Positions 5,196-51,850 are shown, counted from the first letter of the stretch. The stretch: DNA of 64,000 nucleotides from Alphaproteobacteria bacterium (GCA_021151765.1 JAGKWR010000002.1:59131-123130); one strand, 5' to 3'. Notes: generated by a model from the letters alone, not told the origin. Numbers and translations: made by a program.

Positions 5196-6935
5196 ATGGA
5201 ACTTAATCTTAAAAAACACTTCTCAGATTTAATTTTTCTGCCTCTTGGCGGTGCCAACGAAATCGGGATGAACCTTAACGTTTATCATCTTGACGGCAAA
5301 CTCTTAATCGTTGATTGCGGCGTGGGCTTCGCTTCCGACGTGCCAGGAATCGACATGATGACACCAGATATTTCTTTTTTGAAAGCTAACAAAAAAAATA
5401 TTTTAGGAATTATCGTCACTCATATTCACGAAGATCATCTTGGTTCAATTCAATATTTATGGCGCGACTTGGAAGTTCCGGTCTACGCTTCCAACTTGGC
5501 AGCCAACTTTTTGCGCACCAAACTCGAAGAATTCAAACTCGATAAACAAGTTCCAATTCGTTTAATCGATTCCAGCAAAGATTTACAAATCGGACCTTTC
5601 AGCATTGAATTTCTTGGCTTGACGCACTCAGTTCCTGAGATGAAAGCTTTGATCATCAAAACTCCGAAAGGCAATATTTTACATACTGGCGACTGGAAAT
5701 TTGATCCAAATCCAGTTATTGGCGAAGTTTCTGAAAAAGAAAAAATCCGCGAATGGGGCGATCAAGGAAAATTTTTAGCCGTAATTTGTGACTCAACCAA
5801 CGCTATTTCTGAAGGCCATTCCAGATCAGAAGGCGATTTGCATAAATCTTTGAAATATCTAATCGAAGGCCGCAAAGGTATTGTCGGTGTTACAACTTTC
5901 GCTTCCAACATTGCGCGAATTTACACTATCGCATCAATTGCCAAAGAAGTTGGCCGTAAAGTTGTATTGGCTGGCTTTTCGCTACACCGCATCTACGAAG
6001 TTGCTAAAAAAAGTGGCTACGATTTTTCTGGCTTCGATTTTATTTCTGATCGCGAAATCAAATTCCACGATAAAAAAGATTTGTTGGTAATCTGTACCGG
6101 CTGCCAAGGTGAACCTAACGCCGCTGCCAGAAAAATTGCCACTGATCATCATCCTACAATTCGCTTTACGATTGGCGATTTAATGATTTTTTCGTCAAAA
6201 ATTATTCCCGGTAATGAGAAAAAAATCTTCTCATTATTTGACGCCTTTGCCAAAAAACAAATCGATGTGATGACTGAAAAAGATCACTTCGTTCACGTTT
6301 CTGGACATCCTTCGCAAGACGAGTTGAAAGAAATGTACGCCCTGGCCCGTCCTAAATTGGCAATTCCAGTTCATGGTGAATTTTTACACACCAAAGCTCA
6401 CGCTGAGTTGGCTCGCGAATGCGGCGTTCCTCGTACAATTCAAATTGAAAATGGTTTGGCCGTGAAATTGCAGGAAGAAAATTTCCAAAGCGAATGTGGC
6501 ATTGTCGGCATGGTAAAACACGGCTATTTCGGCGTTGATGGCAAACAACTCTTGGATTTAAACGGCGAAGTTATTCGCGAACGTCGTAAACTTCAAAGCG
6601 GCGGAATTGTTACTATTTCTTTAGCTTTGAATGATTCATTAGAAATGGCTTCGCGCCCAAGAATTCAGTGTATTGGTTCTTATGATTTAAAATCTGATCG
6701 CGATTCTGAAAAATTTATCCAAGAAGAAATTCAGTTTTTCCTCAAAAATAAAGCTAAAGAATTGGGCTTAAACAAAGTCTCTAAAGGCTTGTCGTTCTTG
6801 AAAAAAACCAAGAAAAAGAAAAGTTCAATTAACGCTGCCGAAATCGAAAAATCATTACGCGGTAAAATGCTAAAAATTTTCGAAGATTTGATGGGAAAAC
6901 GACCAGCTTTAGAGGTGACAGTCCACTTAATTTAA
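5196..6935 (+). CDS. rnj: ribonuclease J (metallo-beta-lactamase / beta-CASP)
   Basis: 579 aa. HIHEDHLG (HxHxDH) and the downstream beta-CASP pattern (DSTNA ... HVSGHPSQDEL). Confidence 0.85.
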   Translation: MELNLKKHFSDLIFLPLGGANEIGMNLNVYHLDGKLLIVDCGVGFASDVPGIDMMTPDISFLKANKKNILGIIVTHIHEDHLGSIQYLWRDLEVPVYASNLAANFLRTKLEEFKLDKQVPIRLIDSSKDLQIGPFSIEFLGLTHSVPEMKALIIKTPKGNILHTGDWKFDPNPVIGEVSEKEKIREWGDQGKFLAVICDSTNAISEGHSRSEGDLHKSLKYLIEGRKGIVGVTTFASNIARIYTIASIAKEVGRKVVLAGFSLHRIYEVAKKSGYDFSGFDFISDREIKFHDKKDLLVICTGCQGEPNAAARKIATDHHPTIRFTIGDLMIFSSKIIPGNEKKIFSLFDAFAKKQIDVMTEKDHFVHVSGHPSQDELKEMYALARPKLAIPVHGEFLHTKAHAELARECGVPRTIQIENGLAVKLQEENFQSECGIVGMVKHGYFGVDGKQLLDLNGEVIRERRKLQSGGIVTISLALNDSLEMASRPRIQCIGSYDLKSDRDSEKFIQEEIQFFLKNKAKELGLNKVSKGLSFLKKTKKKKSSINAAEIEKSLRGKMLKIFEDLMGKRPALEVTVHLI

Positions 6936-6946
6936 AAAATAAATTC

Positions 6947-7013
6947 CTGTCATCCTAAGCGTAGCGCAGGATCTCGTTAGATAAAATATCGGATCTCTTA
7001 CGCCGGATGACAA
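6947..7013. repeat. RPE-like palindromic element, copy B (degenerate)
   Basis: Left arm CTGTCATCCTAAGCGTAGCGCAGGATC and right arm GGATCTCTTACGCCGGATGACAA. The left arm aligns with copy A (CTGTCATCC.AA.CGT.AGCG...ATCTC) in the same orientation. It ends 14 nt before the ATG of the alaS C fragment. Confidence 0.6.
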
Positions 7014-7026
7014 ACTCGTAAAAACT

Positions 7027-8838
7027 ATGAAAGCCGAACTCAAAATTATTGCCGATCACTTACGTTCCACTTCTTTCTTGGTTGCCGACGGCGTGTTGCC
7101 AAGCAACGAAGGTCGTGGTTATGTTTTGCGTCGTATCATGCGCCGCGCCATGCGCCAACTTCACAAACTTGGTGCTAAAGAAGCTAAAATGTACAAATTG
7201 GTTGATGCTTTAATCAACGAAATGGGCGCAGCTTATCCGGAATTATCACGTGCTAAAGCTGTCATCATCGAAACTCTGAAAAACGAAGAGGAAAAATTCC
7301 GCGAGACTTTGGAAAAAGGTTTGAAAATTTTGGAAGAGGAAATTGCCAAAACTAACTCTGCTAAATTTTCCGGCGAAACCGCTTTCAAACTTTACGATAC
7401 TTACGGCTTCCCGCTTGACTTGACGCAAGATATTTTGAAAGAAAGAAATCTCGAAGTTGATATCGAAACTTTCAATCGCGAAATGGAAAATCAACGCGAA
7501 AGAGCTCGTAAAAACTGGGCTGGTTCTGGTGAAATGGCCGAAGAAAAAATCTTTTTCGACTTAAAAGAACAATTCGGCGCGACGCAATTTTTGGGCTATG
7601 AAACTTTAAGCGCCAAGGCGAAAGTTTTAGCAGTTTATCCCAATTTTATTGTGCTTGACCAAACGCCATTTTACGCCACTTCTGGCGGTCAAAAAGGTGA
7701 CGACGGCAAAATTGGCAACATCGAAATTTCTGAAACCAAAAAATTCGCTGGCGGATTATTCGCGCATTTTTTTGCTAACCAAAACTGCACTTTAAAAGTT
7801 GGCGATGAAGTTATCGCCGAAGTAAATTTTAAAACGCGCCAAGCTCGTGCTTGCAACCACTCAGCAACGCATTTAATGCACAAAGCTTTGAAAGAAGTTT
7901 TGGGAAATTCAATTTCGCAAAAAGGTTCTAACGTTGACTCTGATTACTTCACTTTCGACTTCAATTTCAATCGCGCCATGACGCCGCAAGAAATCGAAAA
8001 AGTCGAAGAAATGGTGAATACTCAAATCAAAAATTCCGCTTCTGTAAACACTAAATTAATGGGCTTGGAAGATGCGCGTAACAGCGGCGCTGAAGCTTTG
8101 TTTGGTGAAAAATACGACTCAGAAGTTCGCGTTGTAGCAATGGGAAATTCGATTGAACTTTGCGGTGGAACTCACGTTAAAAATACTGCAGATATCGAAA
8201 TTTTTAAAATTATTTCAGAAAAATCTGTCGCTTCCGGAATCAGAAGAATCGAGGCTGTAAGTGGATTTTCCGCTCAAGAATTTTTACGTCAGCAACAAGC
8301 AAAAGCGCAAAATCAAATCGCTGAATTAAAAGAAAAAATCGCCCAAAAAGATGCTGAAATTGCTTCTTTGAAAAATGCTGCGGTTGAAGAAAATCCAAGC
8401 TATTTGCTGGAAAATGACAGCAAAGTTTTGGAAGAAATTTTGAAGAAGAAAGACAAAGAAATCGAGAATCTCAAAAAGAATGCTGCTTTGGCAGAAATAC
8501 AAAATTTAAAATCGGAAAAAATTGCCGATAAAAATTTCGCGCATCACATTTTCAATAATGTTGATGGCAAAATTTTCCGCGACATTGCTACTGAAATTAA
8601 AAACAAAGCTGAGTTCAAAGATAATAGCGTGATTGTTTTATTTAACTGCGTTGCCGATTCTGCAACCGCAACAATTATCGTTTCAGCCAATATCACAACG
8701 CAAGTTAATGGTAATAATTTGTTGAAATTAATCGGCGGCAAAGGTGGTGGCAAAGCTGATTTTGTAACTGGTGGCGGCATTATTTCATCTCAAATTGCGA
8801 CCGCAATTTCTGCAATTAAAGAAAATTTAAATTCCTAA
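7027..8838 (+). CDS. alaS: alanine--tRNA ligase, C-terminal fragment (tRNA-recognition, editing and C-Ala domains; split gene)
   Basis: 603 aa. [41 protein letters not shown] aligns with E. coli AlaRS ...[38 protein letters not shown] (about residue 270 onward). Editing-site motifs HSATHLMH and CGGTH and a C-terminal [10 protein letters not shown] are present. No catalytic core is found in this ORF or upstream of it. Confidence 0.9.
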   Translation: [603 protein letters not shown]

Positions 8839-33582: not shown

Positions 33583-34572
33583 TTATAATCCAACGATTTC
33601 AAAAACTTCTTTTTTAGTTTGAGCGGCAATCGCTCTTGCTTGTTCTCTGCCTTGATCAAGAACTTGACGAACATAAGTTTGGTCTTGCTTGAAGCGTCTT
33701 AAATTTTCTTGAATTGGGCGTAATTTTTCGATCAAACTTTCGGCTAAATCATTTTTAAATTTACCGTTGCCAGCAGTTTCATATTCTTGCGCTAAATCTT
33801 GTGGCGACTTATTGGCCGCCGCCGAGAAAATATTTAACAAGTTGCACATTTCCAAACGCGACTCGTCAAAATTGATTGTTGGCAATGAATCGGTTTTGGC
33901 CTTTTTAATTTTTTTCAAAATCAAATCAGCGTCGTCATTTAAATTGATGCGCGATAAATCTGATTCATCAGACTTGCTCATTTTCTTAGCGCCATCTTGC
34001 AAAGACATGATGCGTTTGACTTCTTTGACAATCATCGGCTCCGGCAATTTAAAGTATTCGCAACCAAAACGACGATTAAAAGCGCCGGCAATGTCGCGAG
34101 TAAGTTCAAGATGCTGTTTTTGATCTTCGCCAACCGGCACAATATCGGCGCGGTAAAGCAAAATGTCGGCAGCCATTAAAACTGGGTAAGAGTAAAGACC
34201 GAGATTTTCATCTTTTGCTGATTTCTCTTTAAACTGCGTCATACGATTGAGCCATCCCATCGGCGTCAAAGTGCCAAAAACCCAGGCCAATTCTGCATGT
34301 TCAGCCACTTCGCTTTGAACAAATAACGTAACTTTTTTGGGATCTAAACCACAAGCCAAGTAAACCGCAGCAGCGTCAATCACGTTTTGACGCAGTTCGC
34401 GCGGATCTTGCGGCAAAGTAATAGCGTGCAAATTCATCACGCCGAACACGCATTTGTGCTGATCTTGCAAATCAATCCAATTTGCAATCGAACCTAAGTA
34501 ATTTCCCAAATGCAGATTTCCTGTCGGCTGAATTCCAGATAAAACAGTTTTCATAATTTGATTTGATTTCAA
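33583..34572 (-). CDS. trpS: tryptophan--tRNA ligase
   Basis: 329 aa. [16 protein letters not shown] (HIGH-type) and KMSKSD. Confidence 0.95.
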
Positions 34573-34700: not shown

Positions 34701-36959
34701 TCAGAGGTTCTTTCCTTTAGTATTTTTAGCTGAATTTTCTTCTTGGCTTTGCACTTTTTCACGAAAATCTGCTTTATGATTTTTACGTTCAAAAACTTTT
34801 TCGCCGCTTATTGTTTGAATTTTAAGAGGTTGCGGTGAGCGACTTGGAATTTCGATCTTTTTAGTTTCAAACTCAGTTCTTCCTTGGTCGGCAGATTGCT
34901 GATTTTTCGAAACTTCGTTTTCTTTATTCGGTTTTATCAATTCAGAATCTTGAGTTGGCGACTTTTGCTGCACATTTTCTGGTTGCAGATTTTTTAATTT
35001 TTCTTTCGATCTTTTTTCTTGTTCTGCCATCAAATAACCAATGTCTAAAACTTCAGATTTTGGCAAAACTTTTTGCTCTTTTTCTTGAGAAATTTGTAAC
35101 TGTTTTTGTTGTTGAATTGGCTTTATTGGTGCAAAATCTGTTTTGCTTTTGCTATCCAATACAACGCTGGAAGATTCTATTTTCTTATCGCCAGAATTAT
35201 CAGGAACTTTTATTTTTGATTGTTCCACCACTGTTTTGTTTGCTATTTCAGCTTTCTCAGAAACAGAGAATTTTGGTTCTATTGGTTGTTCTTTTTTAAA
35301 ATCAAATTGCACAGCTTTTTCAACAAGCTGAGGCAAAGTTTTTGATTCCGTGTTTTCTTGAGTTTTAACCTCAGATTTTTGTAATTTCTTACTATCGTTA
35401 CCTAACTCAAATACTTGATCTATTCTAACTTCAAGGCTCTGAAATGAAGTTTTTAAATCTTTAATCGGAGATTTTTTTTCGGATTCGACATCAAATTTTT
35501 TTGAATCTTGACCAACTATAGCATCACGTAAATCCTGAGTTATGTAGTTACCCTTGGCAATTGCTTGCGAAATTGCACTAACTAAAACTTCACGACGTGA
35601 AAACATCGACAACGCACCAATCATTGATGAATCAGCGTTATCAACTGCAATATCAATAATAGTTTTACTACCTTCACGATGATTGACGTTAGCACCACAA
35701 TTAATCAACAAAACTGCAATCAAAGACTGGCCAGATTTAACGGCATTAAACAGTAATTTATTGATATCTTCTTTGCTTAAATCGATTTGCAGCATTTTCT
35801 CCAGTTCAGCTATTGCAGCTGATTTGGTTTGTTTCTGTTCTTTATCGTTTTTTATTTCTGGTTGCGGTTTTTCTGCAACTTTTGACGGCTGAGAATTTTC
35901 AGCTTTTTCAGTATTTTGAATTTGACTTTGTTGCGCGATTTTAGCTAAAGCCTCGCTTAATTCTTGACGATTACTCGATTCTCTTTCTTTCGTGGAATAT
36001 GTTGTAACTTTTTGAGCAGTTTGGCTTTGAGATTGCAAATTTGATGATTTTTGTTCTGCATCACGAGTCTTTTGTTCTTTCTGAGCAGATTCTTTGGCTA
36101 ATTTTTCTCTCGCCAAAGTATATTCGTAAATCGCTTCCATTTCACGATAAATTCGCAACTGTTCTTGCTGCATTCTATCAATCTCAGCTTGCTGACGCTT
36201 CAAAGCTGCTGACTCAGCTTTTCGTTCTTTTGAATCATCATTTTTAGCTTTTTTACGAGCTTTTTCTTCTTCCTCTTTTTGGCGTGATCTTTCTTGATCA
36301 TTTTCTTGTTGTTCTGAATTTATTCCCTTAGCGCCATTTGCTTTCAAAACTTCTACAGCTTTTTGTTCACCAATCATTTCAGCAAAATCACGCGCCGTAA
36401 ATCCGTAAGAATTTTTTTCATTAACGTTAGCTCCGCGATCAATTAAAACCTGCATCTTTTCAATTTTACCGGAAAGCATCGCAGCCGTCAGCGGACTCAA
36501 ACCACATTCACCAAATTTACTTAAATCTTCTGGTTTAAGTTGGCATTTATCGAAGAATTCCATCGATTTTTCCAACGGTTTGCTTGAGGCGCAGGAAATG
36601 ATAAAAATTTCTTTAGCAATAGCTTTTACGCGGTCGCGACGCTGTTTCTCAGCTTCTACTTCTTTTTTAGTTTTGGGATTATTTGAGTTTAAATCTTGAC
36701 CTTCAGAATCTTTATCACGGGCTTTCGCACTTTCTTTTTCCAAAGCTTGCAGCTCTTTTAGATAATCGCGTAATTTTTTTGGCAAAGTTTCAATTAAACT
36801 AGCCGCTTTACGATTTTTTAACTTAGCAATATTTTCAGGTTGGAAGTTTTCATCGCGCAACAAATCTTCAATAAAGTTACGCAAATATTGCTCATCAACT
36901 TCTTCTTCCAAAGGTATGTTAAAATATTCGTCTGAATTTTGATTTGGATTATTTTTCAC
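34701..36959 (-). CDS. ankyrin-repeat protein with long charged coiled-coil / low-complexity regions
   Basis: 752 aa. ANK-like units (GLSPLTAAMLSGKIEKMQVLIDRGANVNEKNSYGFTARDFA; LLFNAVKSGQSLIAVLLINCGANVNH) separated by E/K/Q-rich stretches. Paralog of 40578..41612. Confidence 0.8.
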   Translation of the reverse strand: MKNNPNQNSDEYFNIPLEEEVDEQYLRNFIEDLLRDENFQPENIAKLKNRKAASLIETLPKKLRDYLKELQALEKESAKARDKDSEGQDLNSNNPKTKKEVEAEKQRRDRVKAIAKEIFIISCASSKPLEKSMEFFDKCQLKPEDLSKFGECGLSPLTAAMLSGKIEKMQVLIDRGANVNEKNSYGFTARDFAEMIGEQKAVEVLKANGAKGINSEQQENDQERSRQKEEEEKARKKAKNDDSKERKAESAALKRQQAEIDRMQQEQLRIYREMEAIYEYTLAREKLAKESAQKEQKTRDAEQKSSNLQSQSQTAQKVTTYSTKERESSNRQELSEALAKIAQQSQIQNTEKAENSQPSKVAEKPQPEIKNDKEQKQTKSAAIAELEKMLQIDLSKEDINKLLFNAVKSGQSLIAVLLINCGANVNHREGSKTIIDIAVDNADSSMIGALSMFSRREVLVSAISQAIAKGNYITQDLRDAIVGQDSKKFDVESEKKSPIKDLKTSFQSLEVRIDQVFELGNDSKKLQKSEVKTQENTESKTLPQLVEKAVQFDFKKEQPIEPKFSVSEKAEIANKTVVEQSKIKVPDNSGDKKIESSSVVLDSKSKTDFAPIKPIQQQKQLQISQEKEQKVLPKSEVLDIGYLMAEQEKRSKEKLKNLQPENVQQKSPTQDSELIKPNKENEVSKNQQSADQGRTEFETKKIEIPSRSPQPLKIQTISGEKVFERKNHKADFREKVQSQEENSAKNTKGKNL

Positions 36960-37018: not shown

Positions 37019-37514
37019 TGTAAGGCAAGTAGATGATCGCTGGTTTTAGTTTGGTAACAAATTTGAAAATCAGAGGAAAGTCCGGACTCCTCGTCAGAAA
37101 CGATACCAGCTAACGGCTGGCCACGCAGCTTGAATAAACTAGAGCGGCTGAGGGAAAGTATCACAGAGAATATACCACCAACCATCATTGACTAGCTTGA
37201 TTTTATGCTCTCTTAATCGGAAGTGTTTAGTCGCTACCTTGATGAATTGGCCAGGGTGAAAACGCGAGGTAAGAGCTCACGCGCTTTCGTGGTAACACGA
37301 ATTTGGAAAAACCCTATCGGGAGCAAGACCAAATAGGAATGGCAGTTTAGCAATAAACAATGTTCTGACGCATGCCGTTCGGGTAGGTTGCTTGAGGTCA
37401 ACAGCGATGTTGATCCTAGATGAATGATCGTCCCGCTTACGCTTCGCTACAGCGCGGCTTTGCCCGTGTTGTTGAAGTGTTTGCGGACAGAATCCGGCTT
37501 ATTCTTGTCTTACA
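37019..37514 (+). ncRNA. rnpB: RNase P RNA, bacterial type A
   Basis: GAGGAAAGTCCGGACTCC (37073-37090), CCAGGGTGAAAACGCGAGGTAAGAGCTCACGCG, GGGAGCAAGACCAAATAGG, GGGTAGGTTGCTTGAGG, CCTAGATGAATGATCGTCC and GACAGAATCCGGCTTAT align block by block with E. coli M1 RNA. P1 pairs TGTAAGGCAAG (37019-37029) with CTTGTCTTACA (37504-37514). Ends are accurate to about 5 nt. Confidence 0.9.
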
Positions 37515-37690
37515 TTTTAAATTCCGGTGAGAGCCGGATTTTATTTATTTCTTCTGATCGCAAAACGATCAGTGGCCGGCTTATTCTTGTCTTACATTTT
37601 AAATTTCGGTGCGAGCCGGATTTTATTTATTTCTTCTGATCGCAACACGATCAGTTGGCCGGCTTATTCTTGTTTTACATTCATTAAATT
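37494..37690 (+). repeat. tandem repeat (about 82-83 bp, about 2.4 copies) of the rnpB 3' end plus terminator hairpins
   Basis: Units start at 37494, 37576 and 37659 (partial). Each begins CCGGCTTATTCTTGTCTTACA (the rnpB P1 3' strand). The two full units (1 and 2) continue with hairpin TCCGGTGAGAGCCGGA + T-rich tract and hairpin CTGATCGCAAAACGATCAG. Units 1 and 2 differ by 3 substitutions and 1 indel. Confidence 0.85.
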
Positions 37691-37777
37691 TAAAACTGCG
37701 TTTTAAATTTAGGTTAATTTCGAGTTGCTACAGGCGAAGTAAATTCGCCTATCCACAACAAAGTTTATTTTTTTAAG

Positions 37778-38563
37778 ATGCTTACTACCAACGAAATTCG
37801 TACAAAATTCCTCGATTACTTTGCCAAAAATGGCCATGAAATTATTGCGTCTAGTCCTTTGATTCCGCATAACGACCCTACTTTGATGTTTACCAACGCG
37901 GGGATGAATCAGTTCAAAAATTATTTTACTGGCGTGGAAGTTCCGAAATTCAAACGCGCAGCGACTTCGCAAAAATGTGTCCGTGCTGGTGGTAAACACA
38001 ACGATCTGGACAATGTTGGCTACACTGCCCGTCATCACACTTTTTTTGAAATGTTAGGTAATTTTTCTTTTGGCGATTATTTCAAAGAAGAAGCGATTTT
38101 TTATGCGTGGAATTTGTTGACGAAAGAATTCGGTATCAACCCACAAAAGCTTTTAGTTACTGTTTATCACAACGATGATGAAGCGGCAAATTTTTGGAAA
38201 AAAATTGCTGGTTTAAATGATGATAAAATTATTCGTATCGCAACTGACGACAACTTCTGGTCGATGGGCGACACTGGTCCTTGCGGCCCGTGCTCAGAAA
38301 TTTTCTTCGATCATGGCGATAAAATTTTCGGCGGCCCTCCAGGCAGCAAGGATGAAAATGGTGATCGTTTTATCGAAATTTGGAATTTGGTTTTCATGCA
38401 ATTTGAAAAACACAAAGACGGCAAAATGATTCCATTGCCAAAACCTTGTATTGATACTGGCATGGGCTTGGAACGTGTCACTTCAGTGATGCAAGGCGTT
38501 CATGATAATTACGAAACTGACAGCTTCAAAAAATTGATCGGCGAAATTCAAAAAATTGTGTAA
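37778..38563 (+). CDS. alaS: alanine--tRNA ligase, N-terminal catalytic-core fragment (split gene)
   Basis: 261 aa. [101 protein letters not shown] and DTGMGLERV. It ends ...[13 protein letters not shown], about where E. coli AlaRS reads ...LFRTLIQAVAKVT. Confidence 0.9.
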
Positions 38564-38625: not shown

Positions 38626-40575
38626 ATGAAAAAACCAAATATCAAAGCCTTCTCTCTGGTTGAAATCACGATCGTAATTTTAGTGATTGGTGTTATTATT
38701 GCTGGTGTGTTGGCGAGTAATGTTTTGATTAAGAAGTTTCGTATAGCTACGGCGCAGAATTTGACGCAGTCGTCACCGATTCAAGGTATTGCAGATTCGG
38801 TGTTGTGGTTGGAAACTAGTTTGGACAAGAGTTTTAAGGCTTCAGAGAGTGAGGATAAGTCGAAGTTGAGTGTGTGGTATGATGTTCGTGAGTCTATGTC
38901 TAAGAATAATGCTGTTCAAAGTGATGCTGCTTATGCTCCGAGTTATTCCAATAGTATTAATTATGTGCAAGCGGTGAAGTTTGATGGCACGAATGGTTAT
39001 TTTACGGTGGATGGCTCAGTTTTGAACAATACGAATTACACGATTTTTGTTCTAGAGAGGAGAGAGAGTAACAAGAGCGGTAATTATTTTATTGGTGATG
39101 CTTCATCTGAGAATCAATCAACTACGAATAAGAATTTAGTTTTAGGTTATAGTGCTGATGGGACGGTGATTCATTCGCAATCTAGTGATAATTCTTACAG
39201 TTCGAGTATTTCGACTTATGCGTCCTCAACTGGCAAGGCGCGAGTTTTTAGTTTTGTTCATGATAGTTCTGTGGGTAAGAAGACTTATATTAACGGACTT
39301 CTAGCTGCGACTTCGACTGATACTAATAATTTATCTGGGATGAACACTTTGACGATTGGTAAGTCTTATCAGGGTCAGATTGGCGAGATTGTGATGTTTG
39401 CTCGTGCTTTGACTGATGAAGAGAGAGAATCGGTTGAAGATTATTTGGGTAAGAAATGGAACAGCACAATTTTACGTTCTATTGGTGGATCTGCTTCATC
39501 TGGCGGTATTGGTGGAAGTTGTGTTGGCGGAACTGTCAGCGATTCGGGATGTTTGATTTCTTGTACAGTAACTGCTGCTAATGGGATCACAGCTACCACA
39601 GTTCAAGACGGATCTGGATCTTTAACTTGTAACGCTGCAGCAAATTTCACTGGTTCTTTGCCTTACTCCTGTGTCAACGGTGTCTTCCAATATACAGACA
39701 AAACAAGCTGCTCCTGCGCAACTGGTTATAATCTAACGGGCTCGACTTGTACACCAATTAACCCAAGTTGTTCAGGTGGCACCGAATCTACCACAACTAT
39801 TTCAGGAATTACTTACAAACTGCATACTTTTACATCTTCTGGAAATCTTGTTTGTACAGCTGGTGGCCGTAGTCAGGTATTAGTTGTAGCTGGTGGCGGC
39901 GGCGGTACATTTTTTGGTGGTGGTGGTGGCGGCGGCGGTGTCGTATTTAAGTCTAGCCATACTCTTACAGTCAAAACTTATAGTGTTACAGTTGGTAGTG
40001 GTGGTATTGCTAATACTTCAGCTACAACCACTCCAGTTAATGGTGGCAACTCAGTTTTTGATACTATTACCACTTATGGTGGTGGTGGCGGTGGAAATAA
40101 CTCTCTAGCAGCTGGAAAAGCTGGTGGCTCTGGTGGCGGAGCAAACAGGGGAGATGTTCCGAGCAGAGTTGGTGGTGCAGTTATTACAAATATCGCAGAC
40201 GGAGGAATTTCTTACGGAAACGTTGGCGGTGCCACAGCAAATATTACAGGTTGGGGTGGTGCTGGTGGAGGTGGAGGAGCTGGATCAGCAGGTGGTCAAG
40301 GAGGTTCTAACGGCACAGCAGCTGGAGAGGTTGGTGGTAGTGGTGGTAATGGCGTATCAATAAGTATAACAGGAACACCAACTTATTATGCCGGTGGCGG
40401 TGGTGGTGCTGTTCAGGGAAACTTAACCCCATCACCTGGTGGTTTAGGTGGAGGTGGAGCTGGAGGTCGAAATCCAGTCGCCGGAACAGATGGTTATGGT
40501 GGTGGTGGTGGTGGCTCAACTAACATACCTAAGAGAGGTGGTTCTGGTGTCGTAATTATTCGTTACGCTAAATAA
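38626..40575 (+). CDS. prepilin-type signal + LamG domain + Cys module + glycine-rich C-terminal domain protein
   Basis: 649 aa. MKKPNIKA|FSLVEITIVILVIGVIIAG. LamG_3-like region (LWLETS...SVWYDV...GQIGEIVMFARALTDEERESVEDYLGKKWN, about residues 55-280). Cys module at residues 299-382. Glycine-rich domain from ITYKLHTFTSSGNLVC...VLVVAGGGGG to GGSGVVIIRYAK. Confidence 0.75.
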   Translation: MKKPNIKAFSLVEITIVILVIGVIIAGVLASNVLIKKFRIATAQNLTQSSPIQGIADSVLWLETSLDKSFKASESEDKSKLSVWYDVRESMSKNNAVQSDAAYAPSYSNSINYVQAVKFDGTNGYFTVDGSVLNNTNYTIFVLERRESNKSGNYFIGDASSENQSTTNKNLVLGYSADGTVIHSQSSDNSYSSSISTYASSTGKARVFSFVHDSSVGKKTYINGLLAATSTDTNNLSGMNTLTIGKSYQGQIGEIVMFARALTDEERESVEDYLGKKWNSTILRSIGGSASSGGIGGSCVGGTVSDSGCLISCTVTAANGITATTVQDGSGSLTCNAAANFTGSLPYSCVNGVFQYTDKTSCSCATGYNLTGSTCTPINPSCSGGTESTTTISGITYKLHTFTSSGNLVCTAGGRSQVLVVAGGGGGTFFGGGGGGGGVVFKSSHTLTVKTYSVTVGSGGIANTSATTTPVNGGNSVFDTITTYGGGGGGNNSLAAGKAGGSGGGANRGDVPSRVGGAVITNIADGGISYGNVGGATANITGWGGAGGGGGAGSAGGQGGSNGTAAGEVGGSGGNGVSISITGTPTYYAGGGGGAVQGNLTPSPGGLGGGGAGGRNPVAGTDGYGGGGGGSTNIPKRGGSGVVIIRYAK

Positions 40576-40577
40576 AT

Positions 40578-41612
40578 TTAACGTCCCATTCCACCACCTT
40601 GGGAATTATTGCTGTGGTGAAATGGATTATTTACGTGAGATTGCAGCGATCCGGCATTGTCAATCATCTGCCCCATGACTTCACTAACTCCTCGTACGTT
40701 CTCTTTCGTAATCACACTAGCGCGATCAGCAACTATTGCTGTGATTGCCCAATTACCAGTTTTAGCAGCAGTTTGTAAAATTGTTTCTCCGCCTAAATTG
40801 GCGTTCACATTCGCTCCATCTAAAACTAAACTATTAACTGAAGTAATATCGCCACTTAAAATGGCATCGTGCAATTGTTCTTCTTTAGTTTGCGAATTTT
40901 GCGGTGATGTTTGGTTATCGTTTATCTTACCAAATAAATTCTGCGAACTGCTTTTAGCGCCATTTTCTCGCAATACTGAAGTTAAATCACGATCAATTTT
41001 CAAAATCGCAATATCCAAAGCTGACAAGCCTTCATTATTCAAAACATTGAGCTGCACACCTTCTGTAATTAGAAATTCCATCATCCATTTTTTAACTCCA
41101 ATTTTAACAGCAATATGAGCAGAATTATCACCATTTGGCGATCTAAAATTTACGTTTGCTCCGAGCATAATCAACCATTGCAAAAACTTTTTACCGCGAT
41201 TGCCCAACAAAGCTGCGCTTAAAGCGTTGAATTTACCTTTGCGATTAAATTTGTTGAGATCGGCTACATTAAACTCACAAACATCAAAAAAATTAGTAAT
41301 CTCTTCAATATCAAGGTTTGAAGCACAAGCTGTAACAAATAATTCTTGAGCAATTTCCCGCAAATTTTTTTCAAAATTCGCGCCTTCTTTTTGCAATTCT
41401 TTTTTAAGCTGCTTCAGCTGATGTTGTAGTTCTTCCAACCAAGCTTTTTGATCTAAGTTACTACCTAAATATTTGGCACCAGCTAATTTCTCTGCAAAAT
41501 TATTAACATAGTCGCGATCAAATTTATCGGCTTTGTTCTGCTTAGATTTTGGCTCATTTTTTTGCGAAGAATCTTTTACAAACCAAGAAAAAACTCTCAC
41601 AAAGAAAGCCAT
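40578..41612 (-). CDS. ankyrin-repeat protein
   Basis: 344 aa. ANK units (GDNSAHIAVKIGVKKWMMEFLITEGVQLNVLNNEGLSALDIA; LHDAILSGDITSVNSLVLDGANVNANLGGETILQTAAKTG). The N-terminal module is shared with 34701..36959. Confidence 0.8.
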   Translation of the reverse strand: MAFFVRVFSWFVKDSSQKNEPKSKQNKADKFDRDYVNNFAEKLAGAKYLGSNLDQKAWLEELQHQLKQLKKELQKEGANFEKNLREIAQELFVTACASNLDIEEITNFFDVCEFNVADLNKFNRKGKFNALSAALLGNRGKKFLQWLIMLGANVNFRSPNGDNSAHIAVKIGVKKWMMEFLITEGVQLNVLNNEGLSALDIAILKIDRDLTSVLRENGAKSSSQNLFGKINDNQTSPQNSQTKEEQLHDAILSGDITSVNSLVLDGANVNANLGGETILQTAAKTGNWAITAIVADRASVITKENVRGVSEVMGQMIDNAGSLQSHVNNPFHHSNNSQGGGMGR

Positions 41613-41620
41613 AATCAGTT

Positions 41621-43192
41621 TTATTTTATTTTTTCTTCAACCAATTTCACAAAACTTTCAATGCCAAAAAGTGCAATGAAAGATCCCATTCTTGGGCCTT
41701 GATCTTGTCCTAATAAAATTTGGTAAAGCGCTAAAAACCAATCACGCATATTCTTTTCATAACCGTGATTTTTACCAACTTGGAATACTAAATTCTGCAA
41801 CAACGCGCCGTCATTTTTTTGTTCTTCAGTTGCGTTTTGCAAAGTTGTAACAAGTTCGCGAAGTGCTGATTTTTCAGCGTCAGTAGCTTCACGATATTTT
41901 TTATTTTTCTTGATGAAATCGTTGTAATAGTTGATGGCGTTGCCGACCAATTTCGCTAAATAAGGCGAGTTTTCTTTGGTCAAACCAGCTTGGTATTTGG
42001 AAATAAAACCCCACAGAACCGAGTCATTTTCTGGGTTACAAGCCGATGCCAAATTCAACAACAGCGAATAGCTCAAGTTAAAATTAATCGCCGGAACTTT
42101 TCCTTCATGAATGTGGAAAGCAGGATTATCAAACTTTGCCGCCTCTTCCTGAGTTGGATAAGATGCCGCAAAAGTTAAATATTCGTCAGCCGCTTTTGGA
42201 ATTACATCGAAATATAAACGTTTGGCAGTTTTTGGTTTTTGATACATAAAAAGTGCCATCGATTCAGCTGGCGCGTAGGAAAGCCACTCTTCAACTGAAA
42301 TGCCGTTACCTTTCGATTTCGAAATTTTTTCGCCAGAATCTGACAAGAACATTTCGTAAGTGAAATTTACTGGTGGAATGCCGCCCAAGATGCGGCAAAC
42401 TTCGCGGTAAATTCTTTCATTTGGTTGGTGATCTTTGCCGTAAATTTCGTAATCAACACCCAAAGAATACCAGCGCGCGCCGAAATCAATTTTCCACTGC
42501 AATTTGCAATTTCCGCCGGTAACTGGAATTTCTTTTTCAACTCCGTTTGTATCAACGTAAATAACCGTTCCTTTGGCTTTATTTACACCTTTCACGCCTT
42601 TGTCGATAACAATTCCAGATTCTGGATCAATCGGCATAAATGGCGAATAAGTAGCTTGGCGTTCTTCACCCAAAGTTGGCAACATCAAGTTCATCAAATC
42701 TTCGTATTTTTCCAAAACGCGCAGCATTGTTGAGTCAAAGGCACCAGATTTATATTTGTCTGTCGCTGAAATAAATTCATATTGAAAACCAAAACCATCC
42801 AAAAAGCCACGCAAACGCGCATTCATGTGATGTCCGTAAGATTCATGAGTGCCGAAAGGATCAGAAACTGAAGTCAGCGGTTTGCCTAAATTAGCACGTA
42901 CCATTTCTTGTTGCGGCACGTTGTCTGGAACTTTGCGAAGCCCGTCAATGTCGTCAGAAACGCAAAACATTTTAGTCGGAATTTCCGGCGCAATTAAAGT
43001 GAAAGCGTGACGCACAAAAGAAGTACGTACAACTTCACCGAAAGTTCCGATATGCGGCAAACCTGACGGCCCGTAACCAGTTTCAAAAAGAACGTAACCT
43101 TTAGCCGGAGTTTTACCGCCAATTTTATCGTAAATTCTTTTAGCTTCTTCAAAGACCCAATTTTTGGGCAAATTATTTATATCGAGTTTCAT
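41621..43192 (-). CDS. lysS: lysine--tRNA ligase, class I
   Basis: 523 aa. Class I architecture with PSGLPHIGTFGE (HIGH-like) and KISKSKGNG (KMSKS-like). There are no class II motifs. Confidence 0.9.
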   Translation of the reverse strand: MKLDINNLPKNWVFEEAKRIYDKIGGKTPAKGYVLFETGYGPSGLPHIGTFGEVVRTSFVRHAFTLIAPEIPTKMFCVSDDIDGLRKVPDNVPQQEMVRANLGKPLTSVSDPFGTHESYGHHMNARLRGFLDGFGFQYEFISATDKYKSGAFDSTMLRVLEKYEDLMNLMLPTLGEERQATYSPFMPIDPESGIVIDKGVKGVNKAKGTVIYVDTNGVEKEIPVTGGNCKLQWKIDFGARWYSLGVDYEIYGKDHQPNERIYREVCRILGGIPPVNFTYEMFLSDSGEKISKSKGNGISVEEWLSYAPAESMALFMYQKPKTAKRLYFDVIPKAADEYLTFAASYPTQEEAAKFDNPAFHIHEGKVPAINFNLSYSLLLNLASACNPENDSVLWGFISKYQAGLTKENSPYLAKLVGNAINYYNDFIKKNKKYREATDAEKSALRELVTTLQNATEEQKNDGALLQNLVFQVGKNHGYEKNMRDWFLALYQILLGQDQGPRMGSFIALFGIESFVKLVEEKIK

Positions 43193-45967: not shown

Positions 45968-48900
45968 ATGAATTTCAAAATCCCTAAATTGCACAAGAAC
46001 AAAATTCTTCAAGCGAGTATATCGTTGCTTGTGTTTGCTGGGATATTTCTGATATTTAATACTATTTCTCCTCCTAAAGATCTGCAAAGTGCGGTTTCTT
46101 CCTGCGTTTCTTATACTGGCGCTAATTCCGGAGTTAATTGCGCCTACCCTCCTTGTGCTTTATTAACTTCAGGTGCTAATCCTGGGGTAAATTGTTTACC
46201 TAATTGTGCAAATTTAACTGCTGCAACTTCCATAACTGGTAACTCAACTCCAGTTGGCGGTGTAAATTGTTATTATCTTGATAAACCTCTGTGTACTGCA
46301 ACATCAAGATCCGTTTCGGTTATGGATATAAACATTCCTAATATCATGACCCCCCCTACAGCACCGGATCCTAGAACTAATTGTGCAGACTTAATTGATC
46401 TACCTCTTTGTGAACAAGTTACTCTTTCAACCGCGAATCCAACAGCCAATTGTGTAAAAGAATGTGGTGCAAACGATAATGTTGATACAGCAACGTCCGG
46501 ACATAATGTAACGTGTGTAAGATTTTGTGATAACATGCCAAATATAAATGGCACTAGTACCAAAATGACAGCTGTTCCTAGAACTTCTTCTTCCGTTGGT
46601 AATTGCGTTCCACGCCAATGTCATCAATTAGCAATCGGTACAAAACCAAACGGATCTAATTGCTCTTTGAATAGTTGTAATAAATTGTCTCCGGATGAAA
46701 TGAATCAGAGCAGAATACAAAATGAAGATGATACTAATTTTGCCCAATATTGCGATGGCAGCACCGTTAAATGTTATGAGTTTTCAGCAAAACAACTTCC
46801 CTTTACTAGATATCGACTAAACAACACAATGTGTCAGATTCATAAATGTAAACCAGCAACCACTTCTTGCGGCAGAATTGACAGTTGTACTGGATTTACT
46901 TTGTACAGTGCAACTACTGATGATACTTTGAATATCTCATGTAACACCACTTCTGCTTTAGATAACGGATCAACTCAGCAATATAGCAGTCTCTATTCAA
47001 AATATATTAATGTTGGTCTTCCAATCTCTGACACTTCTTTTTGTCAAGCAGTTGTATGTAAACCAACTTACTATCTTCCTTACCCTTGTTCGGCTGATGC
47101 TAGTGGAAATCTAACAGTTAGAGATACAAATTGTGATGCTTCAGGTGATGGTTCAATATGCGGTACTGTCCAATGTAGTAAGAATGATGAATGTAAAAAA
47201 GATCTAGGATTTTGTTACAAAACAATAGACTGCAATTTATCTAGCAACTCTACCAACTCTGTTTGTATTGCAGCAAATGGTTCTGACGTTAGTAATGATG
47301 GCAATTTTGAAGATGATACAGATTCATCATTTCATAGACCAGTTCCACTTAATAAAGCTTATAAAAATAACGATCCATCACAGGGATATAGAATTTCTGG
47401 AACCTGCTACACAATAAATCAAATGAAATCACAATCTGATGATAGTAGCGATGATCATAAATGGGGAGTAGATCCAGTAATTCCAATGTCTTGGCTCTTT
47501 GGTGCAAAAGATATAAGATTAGGCTATACTCATTCACAACTATCACCTGATCGTACAAGATCTCCTAAAGCTTGTGAACCGTCAAAGGTTGGTTCAAGAG
47601 GAACTGGTTATTCTTATCTGTGTGGCAATAAATCAAGTCTGTATAAACCAATAAGCGAGAAAAGCGCTTTTTACAAAGGATACGTATCTACAGAATTTTT
47701 GGATAATGGTAATACTATTGCCAAACTAAATGTTTGTTTACGATTCAAAAATACTTTAAGACCTGATGATAATACAATTGATGACTCAGAAACATGTGGC
47801 TCGAGAGAATGCGCCATAAGCTATTTTTCAAGTAATCCAATTTCTCAAGCTTGCGGTTTTGATTATTGTCGCACTCTAACAGTAAATTCAGTCAATCCGA
47901 AAGAATGTGCAATGAGTGGAGACTTATTTGATGTTACTCAAGCTAGCAACTCTAATAATGATAACAAAGCTTGTAGCGAAATAGTAGACAGTAACCTCAG
48001 ACTACGAGCTGTACAATATGGTAACAGAATATGCGCCTTTGTTGATTCATCGACTCAGTTTGCTTATAATAAAATGTTTTTTGATGAAAATGTTAAACTT
48101 GATGATGGAGTCACTTGCGTTAGCGGAACTTATAACCAAAAAACCAAAAAATGTGAAAATGGCAAAGATACTAATGATAAACCGGAAGAAGCAACACACT
48201 GGCGTACTATATTAAAAGTGAAATATACCGGTTCAAACACTGATCTGAATGGTTTTTATGATCGTAACGGCAAATTTATCAAAGCCCAAGAATGTGTTCA
48301 AGTGCCTCTCAGCGATTCACCACCAAACTTATACAATTTAGCTTCTTTACAAAATTCATCAAGAATGTTCACACCACCTTTATTCATAAGAGCAATAAAT
48401 TCAAAACGTGAAGGAGTACAAGTTTCATCAGATGCTTCCGGCACAACAGATTTCTTAGAACCTGAAGTAGTAGTTCAGTTCGGCACTTCCAATAAAACTC
48501 TTAGTATTGGCACTGGTTTAAGTGGCTATGAATCAACTCTTGATTCAAAAAGTTATGCTATGGACTCTACGGCTATAAAAACTGTAATGAATGGAATCAC
48601 TTACTCAGCTAATATTCTAATTAAAAAAGAATTTAATTCTGCAATCAATCAACCAACAGTTTGTTTATATCAAAGATTTAATTCAGATAACGGATATTAT
48701 GATATTAAAATTGGTTGTGCTAATAGATCGCTTCCAGAAATAGATAACGCCAACACTACTTCTCAAAGCTCTATTGGTGTTCGTAAAATTAGTATAACTG
48801 CGGATACTAATGGAGTTAATACTCTAGATAAAACTACTCAAAAATACGGAGATGCTACCCTGATATTTAAATATTGTGGCGATGCGAGCTGTTCAAATTC

Positions 48901-51850
48901 GAAATCTATTAATTTCAAAAATATTGATCCATCACAACCAACTTGTTTAGGAACCCAAGAAAGTGATATGGAAAAATACAAAGTTTGTGTGCAACGCGAT
49001 GAGTGTTCTCAATTGTGGAAAGAATGCATGGAGAACGAAATATCAATCCAAAATAATGGTGAAACCGAGTCAACTGCTGCAGAAAGATTAAGATGTCAAA
49101 AGCTGGCTGTTAATTGTAACAACAAAAAAGGAATTACTTCACAAAGCAGTAACTTCGTTGATCAAGTTAACTCAACAATAGCAGATACTGATGCTTATGG
49201 TTGGTTTAATGAGATGTGTATAGTTTCTGGCTTTTCTGATAAATTGTCACAAAAGCTGATTTACCGTAAAATAACTTCAGCAAGCAATGTAAAAGGTAAA
49301 TGCCTTGCTGTTCCGAAAAGCTCACTATCTTCAGTAAATAGCGCAAATTTACAAACTCTTGCCAATTCTTGCCCAAGAGGTGGTGATGGAGTTAATTGTA
49401 TATGTATTGATGCGACTACTGCAATAAGTGGCTATACAATAGATAATCCAACTCCTCATGAAGCTGGTCTTTGTATTTCAATTCCAACGCCAAAAGTTTG
49501 TAGTTCTGTAAATTATGGCGGAGATAGTTATAACTCATCTTCTCTCGGAGGTTCAGCATATACTAGCTCCGGAGGAACCGTTAACACACAGCATGCGAAT
49601 AGATCAACTTCTAACGTTGGAGCATCAGTTGGCGGAGGCTTTGGTGAATTCCCAACTTCAGTTGTTGGTATGAATAATATAAAAGGAACTTGTAACGGCT
49701 TCTGGCAATCACAATCAACTAGTAGTGGTGTTATAAGTCCGAAAATGAATTGCTTAGACAATACTGCAAGTAGCACAAATGGTAAGTGGAGCGGTCTAAT
49801 TACTAATTCAGAATCAGCAGCCTGCGTTCGTTTTTCTTCGCCTGCGATAACTACCGGAAATAATACAAATGATTCTGATGCCTCTGGCAATTATCCAAGT
49901 CAAACTTACACAAAATCAACCGAAACAAACGATGTAGCAAGCAATACCTTCGGAGCCGTTACACTTGGAACTAAAGGAGAATCAAATGGCTACGCAATTT
50001 GGCCATCATTCACTAAAACTAACGATTTTCTACAAACTTACACCGCTACTTCTTGTATAGCAGGATATCGCACAAATTCACTCCCGACAAGAGGAGTTGA
50101 TCAACTTGGCAATCCAAAAAGCGTTAATAGTAGTTGCACCAGAATTACCTGTCCTGCAATTAATCCTTCAACTAATCCTATCGACTGGACGGCTTGGGCT
50201 GCATCAAAAGGCGCTTCATTTGGAGTTGAAGTTGATGCAATGGGTCGCCCACTTACTACAACCTACACAACTCCAGCCTCACGCAGCATTTCTTCAGTTA
50301 CACCAGGATCAACCAGAAAAGGTTATTGTAACACATCTCTTGGTTTCTTCCAAGCAGTTGGCAATTCACAACCAGAAAGAGATTGTTTATATGATGGAAC
50401 TTGGGGACCAGTCAGAAATCCATGCGTGAGTTCTTGTAATGCAGTAACAAATCCTGGATCAAGCGATGGTTTTGCAACATGGCCAGCTTCAAATAATCTC
50501 ACTGCTGGTCAAAGTGCTGTCGTATCTGGAACCTGCCAATCAGGTTATTCTCCTTACCCTTATCCAAGATTTAAAGATGATACTGGTACAGCAATTACCC
50601 CAATCCCAAGCGCAACATCTGGCTCACCTGAAACAAGTCCGAAAAGAACTTGTCAATATTCTCAAGTTGTTGGTGGTGGAAGCGCTAATACCTGGACCAA
50701 TGTTTCTTCAACATGTGTAAATCAATGTCCTGGATATGATATAGATACTAGAGAAGGAGTTGGTAAAACTTCTCATAATACTGCACAATTTGGATCAATT
50801 GAAATCAGATGGCCTTCAACCTCTACTGGAGCGACAATAACAAGAACTTTTGGTTATAACTCAGCTGGAACCGAAGTCGGATTCAATAACCTAACTTCGC
50901 AAACTGCTTCTGATTATTCACAAGCTGGAAGAACTAACGGTTATTTCATTGTTTCCAGAACCTGCAATTCAAACTATACTTGGAGTGCTCCAGTTGTTCA
51001 ATGCGCTACTAATGGCGGAACTGTTAATAACTCAATTATAGGTTCTAGCGGCAATAACACTACAGTGAATGCCGGCTCATCTGTTCAAGTAAATTCTTGC
51101 ACAAGTAACTTCGGCACTCCTTCTATGCCTTCTTACCAATGCAAATCCTACAATGGTAGTACAGACTCTTATGGCTATCAAAACATCGATCAATATTACT
51201 ACAGCCTAGTTTCAGGATCAGCTTGTGCAGCAATCACATGCAACTTAACAAATAACACATCTTATGGAGCAAGTGGTGGTTCCGTTTATACAGGAACTAC
51301 AAGAAATATTAACGTTGGAGAAGTAGTATCACTATCTTGTAAAAGTGGTTTTGGTAAAAATATTCCATCCCCTGCAATCACGAATGGTAACGATAGTAGT
51401 TGCGGCAGAACAGCTAACGATAGAACTTCTCAAAGTCCTACAGCAACTTGTACAAATAATAACGGCGTGGGAACAATCGTTGTAAACAATGACTGCTCCG
51501 CATGTAGAAGTTGCAGTGCTAGCCAATATTCTTATATCAACTCATCTAATGTTAACTACACAGGACTTAACTGTTATGTTGGCTGCAGTGGCAATACTGA
51601 CCAATGCTTTGTAATTAATCACTACAACAGATACGCAACAGTTCCAGCATCTGGATCAGTAAACGCATATGACTATTCTTGCGGTAACGCTGGAGACAAT
51701 GTTACAACTGTAACTTTTGATAACTGTGCTGCAAACACAACTTGCTCTAAAATCACGAATGGCGGCAAATGTGGTAGCAACACGGTGAGATACACGTGCG
51801 TCGACGGAGACTATCAGCTCGATTACTCAACTTGTGGATGGAGTTACTAA
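45968..51850 (+). CDS. giant cysteine-rich secreted/surface protein with Sushi/CCP-like modules
   Basis: 1960 aa. N-terminal hydrophobic anchor or signal ILQASISLLVFAGIFLIFNTI. Roughly 100 Cys by hand count. N/S/T/G-rich. Residues about 45-240 carry about 8 short (G/T)xNC-x(2-7)-C units. Residues about 1190-1843 carry about 6-7 modules of the form C...hhhxxC-x-(S/N)-G-(Y/F)...C...(W)...C. Confidence 0.7.
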   Translation: MNFKIPKLHKNKILQASISLLVFAGIFLIFNTISPPKDLQSAVSSCVSYTGANSGVNCAYPPCALLTSGANPGVNCLPNCANLTAATSITGNSTPVGGVNCYYLDKPLCTATSRSVSVMDINIPNIMTPPTAPDPRTNCADLIDLPLCEQVTLSTANPTANCVKECGANDNVDTATSGHNVTCVRFCDNMPNINGTSTKMTAVPRTSSSVGNCVPRQCHQLAIGTKPNGSNCSLNSCNKLSPDEMNQSRIQNEDDTNFAQYCDGSTVKCYEFSAKQLPFTRYRLNNTMCQIHKCKPATTSCGRIDSCTGFTLYSATTDDTLNISCNTTSALDNGSTQQYSSLYSKYINVGLPISDTSFCQAVVCKPTYYLPYPCSADASGNLTVRDTNCDASGDGSICGTVQCSKNDECKKDLGFCYKTIDCNLSSNSTNSVCIAANGSDVSNDGNFEDDTDSSFHRPVPLNKAYKNNDPSQGYRISGTCYTINQMKSQSDDSSDDHKWGVDPVIPMSWLFGAKDIRLGYTHSQLSPDRTRSPKACEPSKVGSRGTGYSYLCGNKSSLYKPISEKSAFYKGYVSTEFLDNGNTIAKLNVCLRFKNTLRPDDNTIDDSETCGSRECAISYFSSNPISQACGFDYCRTLTVNSVNPKECAMSGDLFDVTQASNSNNDNKACSEIVDSNLRLRAVQYGNRICAFVDSSTQFAYNKMFFDENVKLDDGVTCVSGTYNQKTKKCENGKDTNDKPEEATHWRTILKVKYTGSNTDLNGFYDRNGKFIKAQECVQVPLSDSPPNLYNLASLQNSSRMFTPPLFIRAINSKREGVQVSSDASGTTDFLEPEVVVQFGTSNKTLSIGTGLSGYESTLDSKSYAMDSTAIKTVMNGITYSANILIKKEFNSAINQPTVCLYQRFNSDNGYYDIKIGCANRSLPEIDNANTTSQSSIGVRKISITADTNGVNTLDKTTQKYGDATLIFKYCGDASCSNSKSINFKNIDPSQPTCLGTQESDMEKYKVCVQRDECSQLWKECMENEISIQNNGETESTAAERLRCQKLAVNCNNKKGITSQSSNFVDQVNSTIADTDAYGWFNEMCIVSGFSDKLSQKLIYRKITSASNVKGKCLAVPKSSLSSVNSANLQTLANSCPRGGDGVNCICIDATTAISGYTIDNPTPHEAGLCISIPTPKVCSSVNYGGDSYNSSSLGGSAYTSSGGTVNTQHANRSTSNVGASVGGGFGEFPTSVVGMNNIKGTCNGFWQSQSTSSGVISPKMNCLDNTASSTNGKWSGLITNSESAACVRFSSPAITTGNNTNDSDASGNYPSQTYTKSTETNDVASNTFGAVTLGTKGESNGYAIWPSFTKTNDFLQTYTATSCIAGYRTNSLPTRGVDQLGNPKSVNSSCTRITCPAINPSTNPIDWTAWAASKGASFGVEVDAMGRPLTTTYTTPASRSISSVTPGSTRKGYCNTSLGFFQAVGNSQPERDCLYDGTWGPVRNPCVSSCNAVTNPGSSDGFATWPASNNLTAGQSAVVSGTCQSGYSPYPYPRFKDDTGTAITPIPSATSGSPETSPKRTCQYSQVVGGGSANTWTNVSSTCVNQCPGYDIDTREGVGKTSHNTAQFGSIEIRWPSTSTGATITRTFGYNSAGTEVGFNNLTSQTASDYSQAGRTNGYFIVSRTCNSNYTWSAPVVQCATNGGTVNNSIIGSSGNNTTVNAGSSVQVNSCTSNFGTPSMPSYQCKSYNGSTDSYGYQNIDQYYYSLVSGSACAAITCNLTNNTSYGASGGSVYTGTTRNINVGEVVSLSCKSGFGKNIPSPAITNGNDSSCGRTANDRTSQSPTATCTNNNGVGTIVVNNDCSACRSCSASQYSYINSSNVNYTGLNCYVGCSGNTDQCFVINHYNRYATVPASGSVNAYDYSCGNAGDNVTTVTFDNCAANTTCSKITNGGKCGSNTVRYTCVDGDYQLDYSTCGWSY

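Follow-up and report, generated by a model that had tools for sequence, protein, structure and literature searches.

The window, i.e., the whole stretch of 64,000 nucleotides analysed here (GC content 37.6%), carries the AlaRS gene alaS in two separate pieces on the plus strand. The first-pass annotation had proposed a stand-alone catalytic-core ORF of 261 aa at 37778–38563, and this was confirmed by the ORF call and by the match of its product to the N-terminal part of the Pfam and TIGR00344 models. The gene, alaS-N, ends in ...GEIQKIV and a stop codon, has no internal stops and encodes a chain (alpha) equivalent to residues 1–270 of E. coli AlaRS, the class II catalytic core. Alpha matches positions 1–257 of the 552 in Pfam tRNA-synt_2c (PF01411; E 6e-123) and positions 1–247 of the 847 in TIGR00344 (alaS; 399.6 bits). 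Its residues 3–260 align with residues 3–269 of E. coli AlaRS (PDB 3HXU), and it is 63–64% identical to the catalytic fragments of E. coli AlaRS and 9JC7. Each half was modelled with AlphaFold2 from its own homolog alignment. The model of alpha is of moderate confidence (pLDDT 72.8), has a TM score of 0.85 to 3HXU and places the last helix at residues 248–260, where it closes the protein; structures of GlyQ are weak structural matches to it (TM 0.40–0.50, E ~1e-3). R69, W161, N203, D226, G228 and R233 are invariant across 36 N halves of the clade. The first five of these align with R69, W170, N212, D235 and G237 in 3HXU, which we take to be the alanine/ATP-binding residues of the E. coli enzyme, and alpha holds a class II catalytic core complete with them. 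Beyond one helix, alpha is without a tRNA-binding domain.

The rest of the enzyme is encoded by alaS-C at 7027–8838, an ORF of 603 aa for tRNA recognition, editing, a coiled coil and C-Ala (beta). It was found exactly as first described, with the N-terminus MKAELKIIADHLRS and the motifs HSATHLMH and CGGTH, and the claim that both halves have intact frames stands, as there are no internal stops here either. Beta continues the Pfam tRNA-synt_2c match at positions 269–549, matches tRNA_SAD (PF07973; E 1.8e-18) and DHHA1 (PF02272; E 7.6e-7) and covers positions 269–847 of TIGR00344 (505.6 bits). Residues 4–162 align with residues 279–437 of E. coli AlaRS (3HXU), and in the AlphaFold2 model (pLDDT 83) the first helix spans residues 3–20. 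Both readers of the G3:U70 base pair are on beta, N27 being E. coli N303 and D124 being E. coli D400 (numbering of PMC11392972). Across 41 C halves of the clade this Asn/Asp pair is invariant, and so are the editing ligands H278, H282, C379 and H383. Beta thus combines a tRNA-recognition domain that includes the G3:U70-reading pair with a tRNA_SAD editing domain, whose HxxxH and CxxxH motifs supply the zinc ligands, and a DHHA1-like C-Ala.

The stop codon of the C half and the start codon of the N half are separated by 28,939 nt, in good agreement with the initial estimate of about 29 kb. Because the C half precedes the N half on the same strand, a simple insertion into alaS is excluded, as the first-pass annotation had argued. 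The alignment of both halves to the AlaRS models that it had proposed gives the position of the break, with 1–257 and 269–549 of tRNA-synt_2c, and 1–247 and 269–847 of TIGR00344, assigned to the N and the C half, respectively. The gap was rightly said to be small; the estimate of 6–10 missing linker residues relative to E. coli was too high, since in the alignment to 3HXU only about five residues (271–275), an inter-helix loop, are unmatched, while about seven residues of variable linker, e.g., GVGSDNK, are absent relative to unsplit alphaproteobacterial AlaRS. According to the models, the cut removes just a loop between two helices, falling after helix 248–260 of alpha and before helix 3–20 of beta. 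The ‘prototype’ arrangement with all AlaRS domains on one polypeptide is found neither in the window nor in any other clade member examined. The window also holds aspS (672–2501), trpS (33583–34572) and a class I lysS (41621–43192), all on the minus strand and all intact single ORFs, and gene fission is therefore not general among the synthetases here.

The split is conserved over a wide range of sequence divergence. Homologs were searched for in a collection of 5.8 billion proteins and the matches grouped into clusters at 90% identity. Among the matches listed, the N half is represented by at least 120 clusters, all stand-alone, of about 260–265 aa and 76–91% identity, and the C half by at least 120 clusters, all stand-alone, of about 560–675 aa and 55–100% identity. 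The termini are kept as well; among the matches listed, the N half ends 14–20 aa past QGxHDNY in 106 of the 111 clusters in which this motif was located, and the C half starts 5–9 aa ahead of IIADH in 109 of 120. Ten metagenomic relatives have the C-half start M[KR][AP]E[FL]KIIADH in common, and an in-frame stop is found 2–33 codons upstream of it in all nine relatives with upstream sequence (in L086 a contig edge is reached). These ten showed no AlaRS-like sequence before the C-half start and no N half within 10 kb of the C half. Distant relatives, in which the C part is at most 43% identical, all have both parts fused in a single frame.

Both halves are under purifying selection. By the Nei-Gojobori method the N half has a dN/dS of 0.043–0.077, its synonymous sites being almost saturated, and the C half one of about 0.09–0.15 (0.087–0.133 where dS is 0.18–0.7). 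Two loci encode an identical N-half protein and differ by five synonymous and zero non-synonymous changes. Relaxed selection on either half, which according to the first-pass annotation would speak against a functional split, is refuted by dN/dS values of 0.04–0.15, by the invariant functional residues and by termini kept in at least 120 clusters per half. The ORFs were intact in the relatives examined, and the relaxed selection, variable truncation and disabling mutations that mark pseudogene remnants were not seen in them. As far as sequences can tell, selection, conserved termini and invariant residues support the original suggestion that the gene is not dead but encodes a functional synthetase in two pieces.

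The gene neighbourhood of each half is conserved too. The C half lies between rnj (RNase J) and glmM, and the order rnj, beta, glmM was found in 11 loci; the N half is located downstream of nadA/trpS/rnpB in seven loci. Both halves are visible together on one further contig, k141_758001 of ENA ERZ27247967 (44,990 bp; L106/L107), where they are on one strand, beta first, 26.4 kb apart. Alpha of this genome is 90% and beta 65.5% identical to that of the window. An identical split with the same C-then-N layout is accordingly present in a genome with a considerably diverged C half, which answers the question of whether relatives share it, and the halves are kept together in both of the genomes where both are visible. 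Rates of evolution differ strongly between the halves, as judged from the 90% (N) and 65.5% (C) identity between these same two genomes.

Neighbour-joining trees were built from the C part of 39 split and 48 unsplit sequences. The split forms group as one clade in 200 of 200 bootstraps, whether the whole C part or just its tRNA-recognition region is used. The nearest unsplit sequences in the C-part tree are L024, from a MAG labelled Rickettsiales, and L057. In the tree of the tRNA-recognition region L003, whose N part is the most similar among unsplit sequences, falls outside the split clade. Among 80 species-representative genome loci the AlaRS frame terminates at the split point in only two (L001 and L002). 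Four others have frames that end at 401–786 aa (L012, L030, L047 and L055) and one runs long (L044, 1010 aa), all of them reading through the split point, as does the AlaRS frame in all remaining loci of the set. An exhaustive search of representatives gave one clear split representative of 265 aa (P0242), the other short ones being fragment-like or ambiguous; the clustering of representatives at 50% identity merges split with unsplit AlaRS. The NCBI labels of the relatives are ‘Rickettsiales bacterium’, ‘Pelagibacterales bacterium’ and ‘Alphaproteobacteria bacterium RIFCSP...’. With the taxonomy of the clade based on submitters' labels and on gene content (VirB3, ankyrin proteins, class I LysRS), the sequences suggest a Rickettsiales-like lineage that is possibly host-associated, with which the ankyrin, VirB3, class I LysRS and pilin-like genes fit. 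Several sample names in the records suggest freshwater lakes as the habitat.

A full-length alaS closely related to the two halves was also looked for. The query consisted of the N and C halves joined, against which a close full-length AlaRS would score above either half on its own. Among 8000 candidates scored from the 5.8-billion-protein database the best full-length AlaRS were 52–54% identical overall (~960 bits) and resembled ordinary alphaproteobacterial alaS (those named being Oricola, Ahrensia and Brucella); two local alignments of partial coverage reached 58–59%, and stand-alone C halves 73–100%. No unsplit, re-fused or vertically inherited second copy was visible among these 8000 candidates. 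The lack of a close full-length relative argues against a vertically inherited second alaS, while a second full-length gene acquired otherwise, e.g., horizontally, may be located elsewhere in the genome. No AlaRS remnants were found flanking either half, and no neighbour genes were common to the split loci and the unsplit outgroup loci.

The gene next to alaS-N on its upstream side, likewise on the plus strand, is that of the RNase P RNA, rnpB (37021–37516; Rfam RF00010, 231.5 bits). This arrangement is found in all seven loci examined (the window, 37021–37778; L001, 7294–7716; L002, 9290–10001; L084, 9453–10001; L107, L108 and L109), and the gap between the two genes varies from 20 nt (L001) to 261 nt (the window). 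It suggests that alaS-N is transcriptionally coupled to rnpB, and the two may perhaps form one transcription unit. Between the two genes in the window is a tandem repeat on the plus strand at 37494–37691, for which Tandem Repeats Finder gives 2.4 copies (93% matches) of a unit of 82 nt. The start of this unit overlaps the 3' end of rnpB, and a terminator-like hairpin with a T-run, seen at 37523–37538 and 37605–37620, is part of it; the repeat amounts to a duplicated rnpB 3' end with its terminator and is context, outside the enzyme itself. Three independent short-read assemblies (SRR13740801, SRR13740802 and SRR13740815) contain an N half identical to that of the window and, behind it, the same gene for a glycine-rich pilin-like protein; their contigs all break 139–162 nt upstream of the alaS-N ATG. 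As these breaks fall at the tandem repeat, only the upstream side of alaS-N is affected, and the copy number of the repeat is uncertain. The assembly matches came from an exact-sequence look-up of the N half; the corresponding look-up of the C half (P0121) returned no record. With the 3' junction of the N half found in three assemblies and synteny around each half in more than ten relatives, misassembly, which the first-pass annotation had wanted to see excluded, is effectively refuted.

It is likely that these observations go back to one ancient fission of alaS, in an ancestor of Rickettsiales-like uncultured Alphaproteobacteria, that resulted in a non-covalent alpha/beta AlaRS. The fission site would be the surface loop between the helix at about E. 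coli 257–269 and the first tRNA-recognition helix (about 278 onward), and candidates for its origin are a duplication followed by reciprocal truncation, or a translocation. Alpha (261 aa) and beta (603 aa) would be translated separately. Alpha would provide the class II active site and make Ala-AMP, and beta would provide the acceptor-stem domain, with the Asn/Asp pair reading G3:U70, together with the editing site, the coiled coil and C-Ala for dimerisation and contact with the tRNA elbow. The two chains presumably dock non-covalently via the same interface as the domains of single-chain AlaRS; with the cut placed in an inter-helix loop, this native inter-domain interface could still form in trans. 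The resulting alpha-beta enzyme, probably alpha2-beta2 through C-Ala, would be the AlaRS of the cell. Such a model of an enzyme working in trans leans on the precedent of Nanoarchaeum equitans, where alpha and beta are active together. More tentatively, the free alpha chain, whose gene directly follows rnpB in every case, might have an activity or regulation of its own.

Other explanations for the two pieces can be weighed against a heteromeric AlaRS. It is scarcely conceivable that one alaS was broken, and its pieces misplaced, during assembly or binning. The window does derive from a metagenome contig, and the tandem repeat just upstream of the N half breaks short-read assemblies, but three independent assemblies show the identical N half with the same downstream gene, and the same stop, start and flanking genes recur in at least ten relatives that come from separate projects and were put together with different assemblers. 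Both ORFs also have proper start and stop codons, and in-frame stops precede the C-half start. An equally minute chance is left for halves that are joined again after expression, by a split intein or by RNA trans-splicing, into a single-chain AlaRS. Split genes are repaired in this way elsewhere, as in the case of cyanobacterial dnaE. Here the N half ends 16 residues past QGVHDNY and the C half begins 6 residues before IIADH, so near to these motifs that there is no room for intein halves; no residues beyond the AlaRS alignment are found at either terminus, neither N- nor C-fragments of an intein are present, and the C half, which begins M-K-A, offers no Cys, Ser or Thr as a nucleophile at +1. 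The genes are flanked by spacers of just 62 nt and 91 nt, in which Rfam detects no intron, and AlaRS domains are the only Pfam matches.

That the halves are decaying pseudogene fragments, with a separate full-length alaS elsewhere as the working AlaRS, is very unlikely. The evidence here covers a 64-kb window of the genome, and relatives of the N half are named ‘hypothetical protein’ in NCBI, whereas those of the C half are named ‘alanine--tRNA ligase’. The names are accounted for by the TIGR00344 cutoff of 457 bits, as alaS-N scores below it (399.6) and alaS-C above it (505.6). Decay is at odds with the low dN/dS of both halves (0.04–0.15), with the invariance of active-site, G3:U70 and editing residues and with lengths kept over at least 120 clusters per half, down to 55% identity, and no close full-length AlaRS was among the 8000 candidates scored. 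Somewhat more room, on the side of the improbable, is left for a divergence of functions without any joint enzyme, beta being an AlaX-like trans-editing or tRNA-binding protein and alpha adenylating alanine for another pathway. Free-standing AlaX proteins exist, and the editing domain of beta is homologous to that of AlaX/AlaXM, with the HxxxH and CxxxH motifs; the match to AlaXM is however partial, at 108 bits against a cutoff of 300, and unlike AlaXM beta adds tRNA-recognition and C-Ala domains and passes the alaS cutoff alone (505.6 against 457). The alpha subunit of N. equitans on its own gives weak, G3:U70-independent charging (PMC11392972), and the two genes in the window are unlinked and presumably regulated separately. 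On the other hand, the full tRNA-recognition domain of beta with its invariant Asn/Asp pair would be purposeless without a catalytic partner, alpha could not bind tRNA through a domain of its own, the 8000 candidates scored included no alternative AlaRS for the clade, and the halves are retained together in both genomes where both can be seen.

As the first-pass annotation had anticipated, literature searches for split AlaRS found only the case of the Nanoarchaeota and no published bacterial precedent. Papers on AlaRS from 2022–23 describe the single-chain ‘prototype’ as kept in all of biology and cite N. equitans as the exception (PMC10036535, PMC8887476). [quoted passage not shown] Two separate, unlinked genes are common to the Nanoarchaeota and the window. 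The location of the break is different. N. equitans alpha corresponds to E. coli residues 1–368 and keeps the U70-reading Asn (PMC11392972), whereas the break in the window, at about E. coli 270–276, is some 100 residues earlier and leaves both readers on beta, and it does not lie inside the tRNA-recognition domain as the Nanoarchaeota-type break does (~368). Nor is the ancestry archaeal, since the halves score 84.8 (N) and 298.1 (C) bits with TIGR03683 against 399.6 and 505.6 bits with TIGR00344, and their nearest unsplit relatives are alphaproteobacterial. With an AlaRS of bacterial type and a different break, the fission is therefore independent of that in the Nanoarchaeota. The breadth also differs, a broad bacterial clade in one case and an archaeal phylum with many split genes in the other. 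The bacterial split AlaRS is thus, as far as found, an undescribed instance of a phenomenon otherwise described in the Nanoarchaeota alone.

The division of labour between alpha and beta resembles that of bacterial GlyRS (glyQ alpha/glyS beta), likewise of class II, in which the catalytic and acceptor-stem domains are on different subunits, the small alpha subunit being little more than the catalytic domain. GlyRS is a separate family with specificity for glycine. The beta acceptor-stem (ATL) domain of GlyRS is homologous to the AlaRS tRNA-recognition domain (bioRxiv 10.1101/2023.05.29.542759). By sequence both halves in the window belong to the AlaRS family (Pfam/NCBIfam) and not to glyQ or glyS, and alaS-C has editing and C-Ala domains instead of the HD, body-tail and anticodon-binding domains of GlyRS beta. 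glyQ and glyS are usually adjacent, unlike the alaS halves, which are 26–29 kb apart. In comparison with the single-chain alaS of E. coli (~875 aa) all four domains and the tracked functional residues are present, while the polypeptide is interrupted and the gene order inverted, with the C part upstream of the N part. It is likely that a bacterial lineage, probably of family to order level within the Rickettsiales-like Alphaproteobacteria, relies on a heteromeric AlaRS in which the active site and the G3:U70 reader are on separate chains encoded 26–29 kb apart, the first bacterial split of this enzyme, arisen independently of the Nanoarchaeota, with a different cut and a GlyRS-like division. 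If this is true, catalysis and tRNA recognition meet at a genuine border between modules, which can be separated in the living cell, and the clade offers a natural system for studying the coupling in trans of G3:U70 recognition with catalysis and editing. Nature would also have repeated in AlaRS the division into a catalytic and an acceptor-stem subunit known from GlyRS, and the split would bear on the proposed descent of AlaRS and bacterial GlyRS from independent catalytic and ATL modules (bioRxiv 10.1101/2023.05.29.542759). A practical consequence concerns annotation. With only the C half being called alaS, both the annotation and the completeness estimates and phylogenies that are based on marker genes can be distorted for the clade. 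TIGR00344 is a standard bacterial marker.

Neither half has a sigma-70-like promoter ahead of it in consensus scans. Between rnj and alaS-C, most of the 91-nt spacer is taken up by a 65-nt hairpin on the plus strand at 6948–7012 (RNA fold -25.2 kcal/mol, z = -3.6). It occurs once in the window and is conserved in L085, and L087 has a similar ‘ggatgacaaa’ 3' arm. As a T-run is missing, the hairpin does not qualify as a classic intrinsic terminator; it may serve to terminate or process the rnj transcript and is regarded as context. A tRNA-Ala, in which the G3:U70 pair could be checked, was found neither in the window nor in 16 related loci. Directly downstream of alaS-N, at 38626–40575, is a gene for a glycine-rich protein whose N-terminus resembles type IV pilins and which contains a Gly_rich_2 domain, and two ankyrin-repeat proteins are encoded on the minus strand at 34701–36959 and 40578–41612. 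A VirB3 (type IV secretion) gene is located at 5610–5906 in the related contig L106. The window also contains an ORF of 1960 aa at 45968–51850 that has no Pfam family on record and a 34%-identical relative in L092 (9420–14774).
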